From Escherichia coli (GTDB lineage: Bacteria > Pseudomonadota > Gammaproteobacteria > Enterobacterales > Enterobacteriaceae): 64,000 nucleotides of DNA. Under the pieces are notes generated by a model. It had not been told where the DNA came from. It ran no database searches and saw only the letters and a program-made list of their open reading frames with translations. Shown piece by piece: positions 1 to 35,993 of the stretch. Where the stretch lies: assembly GCF_041886205.1 (NCBI RefSeq), contig NZ_CP169029.1; one strand, given 5' to 3'. The position numbers were made by a program, and so were the translations under genes. Within the stretch, counting starts at the first letter, position 1, and each line of letters starts with the position of its first letter.

Positions 1-195
1 CGCTATTTGTAGCCCATTCAGTTGAGCATTGATAAGTTCAGCCTGACGCGGCGACATGTTATGCGTCGCCCACTGGCGTGGTGTAGCGATATACAACGCC
101 AGCACGCGTGCAGACGAATTGCGGCAGGCGGCAGCCAGTGCGAGATTATCGTGCAGACGTAAATCCTGGCGAAACCAGACCAGATGGGTAGTCAT
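1..195 (-). CDS. phr: deoxyribodipyrimidine photolyase, N-terminal part (gene continues beyond window start)
   Basis: Minus-strand ATG at 195 translates MTTHLVWFRQDLRLHDNLALAAACRNSSARVLALYI, recognised photolyase N-terminus; ATGA start/stop overlap with ybgA. Confidence 0.85.
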   Translation of the reverse strand, partial: MTTHLVWFRQDLRLHDNLALAAACRNSSARVLALYIATPRQWATHNMSPRQAELINAQLNGLQIA

Positions 196-701
196 AAAAC
201 TCCTGAATGGCGCAAGTTAATCACACGCGGCCAAAGTTCGAAATAACGCTGCCCTGAAAGCCAGGCGTCAGGATAAAGCGCCATATAGTGTTTGATACGC
301 ATCAGCGGCGCAAGAAGTGGTTGCTCGCCACGGCGATAACTGTCGATAAGCGCAGCCAGCTGCTGGCGTTCTGTGGAATCAATATGCGGGCGAAAATAAC
401 CCTGAACGTGCATCAAAACGTTGGTGTGGTCACGTCGGTTGGCGGGGTGAGAAAGCAAAACAACTACGCGTTGGCGGTACTGGTTGTAATAGTCATCCAG
501 ATTTTGCCACTGGTGAATATCAGCCACGAACGGGCCAAGTTTGCGGTACTCCGGCTGAGAATGCGCCAGAAAGACGAGTTTATAGCGGCTGTGATAATCG
601 AGAAGCGCCCCGCGCGTTAAGCCATGTTCTTTCAGTCGATGTAACTCATGAAGGGCAAAGATACGGATTAGGGTGCTGTCATCAAATCGTTGTAGATTCA
701 T
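192..701 (-). CDS. ybgA: DUF1722 family protein YbgA
   Basis: 169-aa reading frame from internal Met (MNLQRFDDSTLIRIF) of the 192-aa track ORF; immediately upstream of and overlapping phr. Confidence 0.8.
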   Translation of the reverse strand: MNLQRFDDSTLIRIFALHELHRLKEHGLTRGALLDYHSRYKLVFLAHSQPEYRKLGPFVADIHQWQNLDDYYNQYRQRVVVLLSHPANRRDHTNVLMHVQGYFRPHIDSTERQQLAALIDSYRRGEQPLLAPLMRIKHYMALYPDAWLSGQRYFELWPRVINLRHSGVL

Positions 702-744
702 TACTGCTCCTGAACGGTTTACAGGAGTAAGTGTAGACGGCGAA

Positions 745-780
745 AAGAAAAAAACCGCCAGCATCTCCACTAGCGGTTTT
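745..780 (-). terminator. rho-independent terminator downstream of ybfA
   Basis: Hairpin AAAACCGC-N14-GCGGTTTT with T-run on minus strand directly after ybfA stop. Confidence 0.5.
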
Positions 781-802
781 CAATGTATTCAAAACTCAGC
801 AA

Positions 803-1009
803 TCAATAAAAATCACCAGTTGCCTTTTCGGCCTGATCCATCCACACCGGTTTATCGCTGGTTTTCGACCAGACGCGATGCAGGTAGCTGTAAAAGCGGG
901 CGCGGTCTTTCCAGAAAAGCATGAAAGGCAGCGCCAGAACGCCCGCTGCAACCGCATAAGTACGGCGTAAAAAGATAAGCCATGCAGGATATTCTCTGTA
1001 GAGTTCCAT
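803..1009 (-). CDS. ybfA: small DUF2517 protein YbfA
   Basis: 68-aa [32 protein letters not shown]..., divergent from kdpFABC. Confidence 0.8.
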
Positions 1010-1217
1010 ACTTTTCTCCCCCTTTTGTATCTACCCGGTGAATGGCACCGGAAAAATGAATTTGTTTATCTGATGAAAATAGTACCGCCTTTTGTGTAAT
1101 TTTACTACTCATCCGACCACTTATTTTTGCTTATTGATGGTTTATTTACATTCATCCTGTAATTAAGTTACACAAAAGTTAAATTAATACTAAACATTAG
1201 TTAAATCATGGCTTTTG

Positions 1218-1250
1218 CCATTTTTATACTTTTTTTACACCCCGCCCGCA
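1218..1250 (+). promoter_or_regulatory. KdpE response-regulator binding site / kdpFABC promoter region
   Basis: Sequence CATTTTTATACTTTTTTTACACCCCGCCCG about 70-100 bp upstream of kdpF start, matches the T-rich KdpE box recalled for the kdpFABC promoter. Confidence 0.55.
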
Positions 1251-1321
1251 GATTTTTGCGAAATCTTTGCAGCCAGAATTCTACCCTTCCGGTATCACTT
1301 TTAGGCCACTGGAGGTGCACT

Positions 1322-1411
1322 GTGAGTGCAGGCGTGATAACCGGCGTATTGCTGGTGTTTTTATTACTGGGTTATCTGGTTTATGCCCTGATCAATGCGG
1401 AGGCGTTCTGA
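1322..1411 (+). CDS. kdpF: K+-transporting ATPase small subunit KdpF
   Basis: 29-aa frame from GTG: [28 protein letters not shown]; stop TGA overlaps kdpA ATG (ATGA). Confidence 0.8.
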
Positions 1412-3084
1412 TGGCTGCGCAAGGGTTCTTACTGATCGCCACGTTTTTACTGGTGTTAATGGTGCTGGCGCGTCCTTTAGGCAGCGGGCTGGCGCGGCTG
1501 ATTAATGACATTCCTCTTCCCGGTACAACGGGCGTTGAGCGCGTACTTTTTCGCGCACTTGGCGTCTCTGACCGTGAGATGAACTGGAAGCAATATCTCT
1601 GTGCCATTCTCGGCCTGAACATGCTGGGGCTGGCGGTGCTGTTTTTTATGTTGCTCGGTCAGCACTATCTGCCGCTTAATCCACAGCAGTTGCCGGGGCT
1701 GTCGTGGGATCTGGCGCTGAATACCGCCGTCAGCTTTGTCACGAATACCAACTGGCAATCTTACAGCGGTGAAACCACGTTGAGCTATTTCAGCCAGATG
1801 GCTGGCTTAACGGTGCAAAACTTTCTTTCTGCCGCCAGCGGGATTGCGGTGATTTTTGCCCTCATCCGTGCGTTTACCCGCCAGAGCATGAGCACACTCG
1901 GGAATGCCTGGGTCGATCTGCTACGCATCACGTTATGGGTGCTCGTCCCTGTGGCGTTGTTGATCGCACTGTTTTTTATTCAACAAGGTGCGCTGCAAAA
2001 CTTTCAGCCTTATCAGGCTGTGAATACCGTTGAAGGAGCGCAACAGCTGTTACCCATGGGGCCTGTAGCTTCTCAGGAAGCGATCAAGATGCTCGGTACT
2101 AACGGCGGTGGCTTCTTTAATGCCAACTCGTCGCATCCGTTTGAAAACCCAACCGCACTGACCAACTTCGTGCAGATGCTGGCGATCTTCTTGATCCCAA
2201 CGGCGCTGTGCTTTGCCTTTGGTGAAGTGACGGGCGATCGCCGCCAGGGGCGCATGTTGCTGTGGGCGATGTCAGTGATTTTTGTCATCTGCGTAGGCGT
2301 GGTGATGTGGGCAGAAGTTCAGGGTAATCCTCATCTGCTGGCGCTCGGCGCAGACAGCAGCATCAATATGGAAGGTAAAGAGAGCCGTTTCGGCGTGCTG
2401 GTCAGTAGCCTGTTTGCGGTCGTGACTACGGCGGCTTCCTGTGGCGCGGTGATTGCGATGCATGATTCGTTTACCGCTCTCGGTGGCATGGTGCCGATGT
2501 GGCTGATGCAAATTGGTGAAGTGGTGTTCGGCGGTGTCGGTTCTGGTCTTTACGGCATGATGCTGTTTGTCCTGCTGGCGGTGTTTATTGCCGGGCTGAT
2601 GATTGGTCGTACACCGGAATATCTGGGTAAAAAAATCGACGTACGTGAGATGAAACTGACTGCACTGGCGATTCTGGTCACCCCGACGCTGGTGCTGATG
2701 GGCGCGGCGCTGGCAATGATGACCGACGCCGGACGTAGCGCCATGCTCAACCCTGGCCCGCATGGTTTTAGCGAAGTGCTGTACGCCGTGTCATCCGCCG
2801 CTAACAACAACGGCAGCGCCTTTGCCGGATTAAGCGCCAACTCTCCGTTCTGGAACTGTTTACTGGCGTTCTGCATGTTTGTCGGTCGCTTCGGGGTGAT
2901 TATCCCGGTGATGGCAATTGCCGGTTCGCTGGTGAGTAAAAAGAGCCAACCCGCCAGCTCCGGCACGCTGCCAACGCACGGCCCGCTGTTTGTTGGCCTG
3001 TTAATCGGCACCGTGTTGCTGGTTGGCGCACTGACCTTTATCCCTGCCCTGGCGCTTGGTCCGGTGGCGGAATATCTCTCCTGA
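1411..3084 (+). CDS. kdpA: K+-transporting ATPase subunit A
   Basis: 557-aa frame from [14 protein letters not shown] within track ORF 1267..3084; polytopic membrane protein. Confidence 0.95.
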
Positions 3085-8413: not shown

Positions 8414-9087
8414 CAAACGTTCTGATTGTTGAAGATGAACAGGCTATTCGTCGCTTTCTGCGCACGGCGCTGGAGGGCGACGGTATGCGCGTCTTTGAGG
8501 CCGAAACGCTGCAACGCGGCTTGCTGGAAGCGGCAACCCGTAAGCCAGATTTGATTATTCTCGATCTCGGCCTGCCCGATGGTGATGGGATTGAGTTTAT
8601 CCGCGACCTGCGCCAGTGGAGCGCGGTGCCGGTGATAGTGCTTTCCGCACGCAGCGAAGAGAGCGACAAAATCGCCGCGCTGGATGCCGGAGCGGATGAT
8701 TATCTGAGTAAGCCGTTTGGCATTGGCGAATTGCAGGCCCGTCTGCGCGTCGCATTACGCCGCCATTCAGCCACTGCCGCGCCCGATCCGGTAGTGAAAT
8801 TTTCCGATGTTACCGTCGATTTAGCCGCCCGCGTGATTCACCGGGGTGAGGAAGAGGTGCATCTCACCCCGATTGAATTCCGCCTGCTGGCGGTGCTGCT
8901 CAACAATGCCGGAAAAGTGCTCACCCAGCGCCAGCTTCTTAACCAGGTGTGGGGGCCAAACGCGGTCGAACACAGTCATTATTTGCGTATTTATATGGGA
9001 CATCTGCGACAAAAACTGGAACAGGATCCCGCTCGCCCCCGCCATTTCATTACTGAAACCGGTATTGGGTATCGGTTTATGCTTTAG
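8410..9087 (+). CDS. kdpE: response regulator KdpE
   Basis: 225-aa ORF, GTG start overlapping kdpD stop; receiver plus winged-helix OmpR-type. Confidence 0.95.
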   Translation: MTNVLIVEDEQAIRRFLRTALEGDGMRVFEAETLQRGLLEAATRKPDLIILDLGLPDGDGIEFIRDLRQWSAVPVIVLSARSEESDKIAALDAGADDYLSKPFGIGELQARLRVALRRHSATAAPDPVVKFSDVTVDLAARVIHRGEEEVHLTPIEFRLLAVLLNNAGKVLTQRQLLNQVWGPNAVEHSHYLRIYMGHLRQKLEQDPARPRHFITETGIGYRFML

Positions 9088-9097
9088 GCGGTTGAAT

Positions 9098-9185
9098 TAC
9101 CGGATGCGGCGTATACGCTTTATATGGCCTACGTAATGCTCCCGTAGGCATGATAAAACGCGCTAGCGTCGCATCAGGCATTGGC
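9098..9185. repeat. REP/BIME palindromic units
   Basis: CCGGATGCGGCGT... and GCGTCGCATCAGGC motifs typical of E. coli REP. Confidence 0.7.
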
Positions 9186-9201
9186 ACTCATATCGAAATG
9201 T

Positions 9202-25530: not shown

Positions 25531-25562
25531 ACCACGTCTCAGGACGTGGTTTCTTATTTTTA
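25531..25562 (+). terminator. rho-independent terminator after nagD
   Basis: ACCACGTC-TCAG-GACGTGGT hairpin followed by TTCTTATTTTT. Confidence 0.7.
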
Positions 25563-25765
25563 CCCATCATTAAAATCATCCCATTCAATAAAACCCGCCA
25601 AAAATTATCGATCCATCAATAAATACGCCACCGCACCATCCCCTTTTTCACAAATCAGCAATCACCATTACGTTTTTTATTTTTCCACCGCCAAATCTCT
25701 TGCGCACGTTGCTGCTTTGCGGCATTTTTTAAACAAGCAACCGCAACAAATTAATGGAGAAGGTT

Positions 25766-35712: not shown

Positions 35713-35993
35713 TTGTTATACAAGGCAAAGCTTGAACCAGCATCAGTACAACCCGGTTGCACCACAGCAATCCACCGGTAGCACCAAAAGAGTGCATTTT
35801 AAGAATTTTGCTTCGGAATGGTGCGGTGCACCTCGCAAAAACAAACAATAAAACATCAATATCTTTACATTTAGCCAAACTAAATGTTACCTAACAGGCA
35901 CAACACTGCACAATAAAGTTGCAGACAATAACAACACAAACACTCACAACGGGTATCCATGCGTTCTTAACGCAGAAGATAAAGGAGTTGGAT

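Follow-up and report, generated by a model that had tools for sequence, protein, structure and literature searches.

The ybfA-ybgA junction of an Escherichia coli genome carries an unoccupied allele of the RhsC locus

In Escherichia coli K-12 the genes ybfA and ybgA are kept apart by the RhsC element. In the stretch of E. coli DNA analysed here (64,000 nucleotides of contig NZ_CP169029.1, hereafter called the window) both genes are immediate neighbours. This raises the question of whether RhsC never entered the site from which the window derives or was lost from it, and whether the spacer between ybfA and ybgA is a target that Rhs elements use repeatedly.

Layout of the junction and comparison with K-12

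Gene positions combine the sequence, the list of open reading frames (ORFs) and the RefSeq annotation of strain LHM10-1, which is identical over window positions 1..1300. In window coordinates, the features of the junction are as follows.

1..195, minus strand: 5' end (first 195 nt) of phr (phrB, photolyase), as annotated in LHM10-1 and MG1655
192..701, minus strand: ybgA, 169 aa, DUF1722 (Pfam PF08349, E 2.3e-35), from the ORF list and the LHM10-1 annotation
702..739, minus strand: segment of the spacer that is also present in occupied genomes; on the ybgA side, homology to K-12 starts at 739 (CGTCTACAC...)
711..707, minus strand: AGGAG Shine-Dalgarno sequence of ybgA, 5 nt upstream of the ATG (701..699), read from the sequence
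740..748, minus strand: 9 bp (TCTTTTCGC on the minus strand, i.e., in K-12 orientation), present in empty alleles only; K-12 has the 9,568-bp RhsC element instead (MG1655 729395..738962)
781..750, minus strand: predicted intrinsic-terminator hairpin of ybfA, 14-bp stem with three G·U pairs and a GAGA loop, from a terminator scan and RNA folding
803..1009, minus strand: ybfA, 68 aa, DUF2517 (Pfam PF10725, E 2.9e-34), from the ORF list and the LHM10-1 annotation
1322..1411, plus strand: kdpF, first gene of the kdpFABC operon and conserved left flank of the Rhs locus, from the annotation

The proteins on both sides of the 101-bp spacer (702..802) are close to their K-12 counterparts, with identities of 100% for YbfA and 99.4% for YbgA. 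The start of phr overlaps the stop codon of ybgA, and kdpA comes after kdpF on the plus strand. A preliminary description of this DNA, which had placed ybfA and ybgA directly side by side with about 100 bp and a terminator hairpin in between, is borne out; the spacer additionally holds the ribosome binding site of ybgA, of which the AGGAG motif is present in every allele aligned. An ORF spanning 192..770 with a GTG start was rejected as ybgA, since it crosses the hairpin and differs from the annotated gene. No Rfam family was detected in the spacer at E<=1. Likewise, the Rfam scan of window 500..1400 yielded no tRNA or other genuine RNA family, the sole hit being a weak mir-498 match at 899..937 inside ybfA, which is attributed to chance. 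Scans for the sigma-70 consensus gave no match in the window spacer and none in a stretch of K-12 made up of the final 260 bp of the element and the ybgA start, and a literature search for a mapped ybgA/phr promoter found nothing useful. Judged by its sequence, window 702..802 is an ordinary spacer composed of a predicted terminator and a ribosome binding site.

The hairpin begins 21 nt past the ybfA stop codon and is followed by a T-tract that runs to about position 743. It thus has the structure of a rho-independent terminator, namely a GC-rich stem-loop followed by a U-run on the 3' side of a stop codon. In a 66-nt context its predicted folding energy is -19.9 kcal/mol (z = -2.7), compared to -31.8 kcal/mol for the K-12 hairpin in the same context, so that the stem of the window is weaker by about 12 kcal/mol. 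The hairpin is kept in all alleles that retain the ybfA-side flank, and the substitutions in it are G·U-compatible. Structure and conservation suggest that it would act as the terminator of ybfA.

Comparison with MG1655 gives the following gene order: ybfA (729134-729340), rhsC (729583-733776), ybfB, ybfO', ybfC, ybfQ, ybfL', ybfD (to 738853), and ybgA (739001-739510). The coding sequences of ybfA and ybgA are 9,660 bp apart in MG1655 versus 101 bp in the window. In pairwise alignments window 1300..749 corresponds to MG1655 728843..729394 with 99.3% identity, and window 739..1 to MG1655 738963..739701 with 99.2% identity; homology to K-12 stops at window position 749 and restarts at 739. The intervening 9,568 bp have no counterpart in window 1..1300. 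The placement of an RhsC element of roughly 10 kb between ybfA and ybgA in K-12, as given in the preliminary description, is confirmed by annotation and alignment alike, and rhsC is located between both genes, not elsewhere. The left boundary of RhsC falls within the T-tract after the ybfA terminator stem and the right boundary abuts CGTCTACAC and precedes the ybgA ATG by 38 nt. The K-12 insert is a classic Rhs composite with a core of 57-66% GC and tips and an H-repeat region of 30-42% GC. Both flanks (kdpFABC-ybfA and ybgA-phr) have the same gene order and orientation in the window and in MG1655, and the ybfA-ybgA interval of the window (101 bp) contains no rhs/YD-repeat sequence, immunity gene, orphan tip or H-repeat (ISAs1). 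The window carries an unoccupied allele of the RhsC locus.

Besides the junction, further differences from K-12 were observed. Within ybgA, five differences are located inside 17 bp (positions 420, 429, 432, 435, and 436), and each version of this 420..436 patch occurs in other strains; the cluster has the appearance of a short recombined segment, the remainder of ybgA being K-12-like. At window 9086..9200, between the end of ybfP and the 3' end of kdpE, about 115 bp of REP-like sequence replace a 5,150-bp K-12 block comprising ybfG'-ybfI'-potE-speF-speFL (MG1655 715908..721057). In K-12 the 3' end of kdpE recurs as ybfI, an 89% copy, so that duplicated kdpE 3' sequence encloses the speF-potE block. 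A junction of ybfP and kdpE resembling that of the window was found in 246 of 5,426 genomes, and strain 22AR0747 has the order pgm-potE-speF-kdpE without ybfP. In the gltI-lnt spacer the IS5D insertion of K-12 (MG1655 687851..689045) is absent from the window at about 35890..35894, and the asnB-umpH spacer (window 25552..25581) comprises about 30 bp versus about 170 bp in MG1655 (699377..699546), which probably reflects REP/BIME copy number.

The length of ybgA differs within the family. In many other Enterobacteriaceae (loci L007, L013, L018, and others) the gene that follows ybfA encodes a 318-aa protein in which a 2-thiouracil desulfurase domain (PF04463, formerly DUF523) is fused to DUF1722. 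A short ybgA (157-189 aa) with a similar spacer of about 100 bp occurs in Escherichia, the Citrobacter freundii group, Trabulsiella, and K. spallanzanii, and the short protein of E. coli matches DUF1722 only. The lineages with a short ybgA seem to have lost the desulfurase half.

Occupied and empty alleles in E. coli

In a set of 5,426 complete E. coli genomes, the site is contiguous and thus empty in about 1,310 (24%; 1,306 with a 151-bp probe). The K-12 left junction was found in 3,720 and the K-12 right junction in 3,209 of these genomes. A second type of left junction, represented by strain GPEC673 and diverging from the ybfA stop codon onwards, is present in 96 of the 5,426; about 100 further genomes match just the first approximately 90 bases of the 211-base GPEC673 query, 21 of which are ybfA coding sequence. 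Most empty genomes carry a divergent, B2-like flank with 84-85% identity across the 151-bp probe. An allele exactly like that of the window, with the hairpin sequence CTAGTGGAGATG, is rare and occurs in 8 genomes.

Occupied genomes differ in internal content and in the sequence of the right end of the element. All four right junctions that were read, those of K-12, DC71, GPEC673, and 22AR0747, are located at the same base of the ybgA flank, directly before CGTCTACAC. The allele of 22AR0747 is an occupied one on the B2-like flank haplotype. In GPEC673 the element comprises 15.7 kb with a DcrB-like fragment, three rhs fragments, two SymE toxin genes, three ISAs1 copies, and several orphan tips; set beside the vgrG gene at this place in E. 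whittamii (see below), it indicates that the content of the island varies widely between genomes. In DETEC-S586 the hairpin is of the occupied type (CCAGCGG); behind it come about 55 bp of different sequence and an IS1, and ybgA is truncated. This site was altered secondarily, and none of those marks is present in the window.

The K-12 junctions lack the signatures of transposition or site-specific integration that were looked for. The preliminary description had proposed target duplications as something to look for at 702..802; in the shuffle test of the K-12 junctions none was detected beyond chance, the longest shared direct word being 6 nt, a length reached by 105 of 300 shuffles. Terminal inverted repeats beyond chance are likewise absent, as the longest inverted word between the first and the last 150 bp of the element has 7 nt (reached by 79 of 100 shuffles), and the annotation of K-12 RhsC contains no integrase. 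Two short resemblances were dismissed: a (T)ATCA motif near both K-12 ends is at chance level as a repeat in this T-rich context, and the loose similarity of the last 8 nt of the element (TTTCTCAA) to the TTTTCGC of the empty site is within chance for the same reason. At the K-12 insertion nine bases were replaced and not duplicated.

These observations bear on the possibility that the spacer is a reusable, att-like target at the terminator which received Rhs elements in repeated independent insertions. The existence of two left-junction types, as well as the occurrence of occupied alleles on both flank haplotypes, would be in agreement with repeated use. Nevertheless, we regard it as very unlikely, given that the K-12 ends show neither target duplication nor terminal inverted repeats, that no integrase or tRNA is associated with the site, and that the right junction is identical to the base in the occupied E. 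coli alleles read. Moreover, the K-12 left junction recurs base for base in E. albertii and E. whittamii, which fits common descent and recombination with later internal rearrangement, and no other genus among the 80 loci described below has rhs at this site. Since target duplications and other insertion signatures are missing, the junction would instead record one old event. The earlier proposal that the junction maps where an Rhs element inserts can be kept, now resolved to the base, but as the trace of one old event and not as a reusable target.

Age of the insertion and history of the empty allele

The ybfA loci of 80 GTDB Enterobacteriaceae species, covered by one contig scan, were compared; no GTDB representative of E. 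coli, E. fergusonii, E. marmotae, or E. ruysiae could be recognised by name among these 80, so that the Escherichia outgroup sample is incomplete. At 71 of the 80 loci phr is located just downstream of ybfA on the same strand. A ybgA homologue directly follows ybfA at 29 loci of other Enterobacteriaceae species, with a spacer of about 90-120 bp in most of them, and outside Escherichia none of the 80 loci has rhs at the ybfA-phr site. Two further loci, L004 and L006, belong to non-coli Escherichia; they are empty, with ybgA following ybfA after spacers of 101 bp, and read TGTTTTCGC and TATGTACGC, respectively, at the position of the window 9-mer. Other empty alleles, including those of non-coli Escherichia, thus carry homologous 8-9 bp at this position. 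The window is colinear with this arrangement, as found in L004, L006, and most of the 29 Enterobacteriaceae loci, and displays no deletion scar.

The left junction of K-12, GGCGGTTTTTT(T) followed directly by GTATCAGGAAGA, is also present in E. albertii (L080), E. whittamii (L003), and Escherichia sp. MOD1-EC7003 (L005). In these three genomes it reads TTTTTT followed by GTATCAGGAAGA, with a slight difference in MOD1-EC7003, where ATTAGGAAGA comes after the T-run. In case of E. albertii the junction leads into an rhs gene with 91.6% DNA identity to rhsC, and in case of E. whittamii directly into vgrG (L003 9873..11441). Because these three relatives share the left junction, the insertion would be older than E. 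coli. Jackson et al. 2009 described the locus as Rhs "position 5" (kdpA-phr), reported a complete rhs at this position in E. albertii, scored strains as present, pseudogene, relic or absent per position (their Fig. 3a), and inferred that the ancestral E. coli carried rhs at position 5 and that loss was frequent (PMC2935791). The outgroup comparison reproduces their conclusion that the insertion predates E. coli, here as read from shared junction sequences. In the genome paper of E. coli W, b0699-b0706 are tabulated as a variable Rhs position (PMC3032704).

An empty site in E. coli could also have arisen if RhsC had been precisely excised or deleted from an occupied site like that of K-12. Rhs elements are known as "rearrangement hot spots" and are often partly deleted, and DETEC-S586 exemplifies an IS1-associated truncation at this very locus. 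Such an origin is nonetheless most improbable for the adjacency seen in the window. The occupied ends have no direct repeats longer than the chance-level 6-nt word, the spacer is exactly 101 bp long as in L004 and L006, and the 9 bp TCTTTTCGC, which are matched in the empty sites of non-coli Escherichia, do not occur in occupied alleles, so that a deletion cannot recreate them. Since excision could not regenerate the 9-mer, the spacer of the window would descend from uninterrupted DNA. The empty allele is, by sequence comparison, the pre-insertion structure.

The structure of the allele has to be distinguished from the history of the strain. Compared to K-12, the flanks of the window differ at 0 of 500 positions on the ybfA side and at 5 of 650 on the ybgA side, and they are closer to those of occupied K-12 than to the flanks of any other empty allele sampled. 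There is no difference from K-12 over 773..1598, the next one being at 1599, and one difference over 437..739; the bases of empty type are limited to about 740..772. On the ybfA side all four differences are situated in the hairpin (763, 765, 769, and 772), packed into 10 nt inside 826 bp that are otherwise identical to K-12. Three of them create G·U pairs and one sits in the loop. As the flanks are nearly identical to those of K-12, recombination would have changed the occupancy of the site either in the lineage of the window or in that of K-12.

It is therefore a possibility of some weight, although in our assessment the less probable course, that a K-12-like, occupied ancestor of the window was emptied again by homologous recombination with empty-site DNA, in which a few tens of bases on each side were replaced. 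The essentially K-12-like flanks, the confinement of empty-type bases to the immediate surroundings of the site, the rarity of the exact window allele, and the occupied ancestor with frequent loss inferred by Jackson et al. (PMC2935791) are all consistent with such a secondary loss. The same pattern would, however, result if the K-12 lineage had gained the element on a window-like flank. Furthermore, ybfA and the ybfA-kdpF spacer differ at only 0-18 positions per 500 bp across E. coli, and owing to this high conservation the identity of the flanks carries little information; single nucleotide polymorphisms of the flanks, tried as a means to polarise gain versus loss, were uninformative, because the ybfA region is too conserved and mosaic. 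With either course the spacer sequence itself derives from an uninterrupted allele. The designation of the window as an "unoccupied ancestral site" in the preliminary description accordingly applies to the allele, which is unoccupied and ancestral in structure with regard to the 9-mer and the 101-bp spacers of the outgroups; it is not established for the strain or the species, as the insertion predates E. coli.

The hairpin offers a further view of the relation between both states. CCAGCGG is shared by the sampled occupied alleles that retain the hairpin and by the empty alleles of non-coli Escherichia. Two of the four changes in the window (CCAGCGG to CTAGTGG) are common to other non-B2 empty alleles of E. 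coli, B2-like empty alleles read CCGGTGG, and the other two (GAAAC to GAGAT) occur in the rare allele of the window only. Because of the distribution of CCAGCGG, the empty alleles of E. coli share at least one derived base: the T in GTGG was found in 9 of 9 sampled E. coli empty alleles and in none of the sampled hairpin-retaining occupied or non-coli empty alleles, a linkage drawn from few sampled alleles and from one or two polymorphic positions. It is tempting to speculate that the presence/absence difference at RhsC, with both states found in E. coli as well as in other Escherichia species and on both flank haplotypes, is a trans-species polymorphism that arose before E. coli, in which the E. 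coli empty alleles constitute a lineage of their own with derived hairpin substitutions, and which is explained by long-term balancing selection on the costs and benefits of Rhs toxin and immunity better than by simple gain and loss. We consider this rather unlikely.

Taken together, the window very probably carries an unoccupied RhsC allele whose compact spacer was never interrupted, the element of occupied genomes going back to a single old insertion and alleles having been exchanged by recombination. Under this model the ybfA transcript would end at the hairpin 781..750 and its T-run, and about 40 nt further on the ribosome binding site and start of ybgA-phr would follow. The majority of E. 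coli genomes have a composite Rhs toxin island right after the terminator T-run, in place of 9 bp. This island combines an rhs core rich in GC with AT-rich toxin tips and their immunity genes, besides orphan tips and remnants of ISAs1/H-repeats. The insertion would represent a single event, older than E. coli, followed by vertical descent and by internal remodelling through tip displacement and ISAs1 activity. Since both states are found on both types of flank and the state-specific bases are restricted to a few tens of nucleotides, recombination would repeatedly have moved alleles between backgrounds. Empty and occupied alleles would both have persisted and been transferred among lineages by homologous recombination through the conserved flanks, with the spacer of the window descending from DNA that was never interrupted.

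Relation to known Rhs loci

The closest known counterpart is the RhsC element of K-12 (b0700-b0706) at Rhs position 5, with the same locus, the same flanking genes, and flanks that are 99.2-99.3% identical up to the junction. The window differs by the lack of the whole 9,568-bp element, with 9 bp in its place, and by the four hairpin substitutions. With the Rhs-free alleles of natural E. coli it likewise shares a clean presence/absence difference at a fixed map position, and there is no difference in kind. Hill et al. (Genetics 1995) reportedly surveyed the ECOR collection for presence and absence of Rhs elements in the same way. A more remote similarity exists to vgrG-rhs islands of type VI secretion effectors, as E. 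whittamii has vgrG after the same left junction and the elements of E. coli consist of rhs, immunity genes, and orphan tips; none of those genes is present at the junction in the window, and the K-12 copy is devoid of vgrG.

The locus is a well-documented polymorphic Rhs locus, and the presence/absence difference described here is real but already known: reports on the variable presence of Rhs at this position date back to the 1990s, with a comparative study in 2009. The additional value is modest. The boundaries of RhsC are now fixed to the base, after the T-run of the ybfA terminator and before CGTCTACAC, and clean empty alleles without a transposition signature are found beside an insertion that would predate the species. 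The lack of a transposition signature together with the persistence of clean empty alleles fits a spread and loss of Rhs elements by homologous recombination in their flanks, not by a dedicated mobility of their own.
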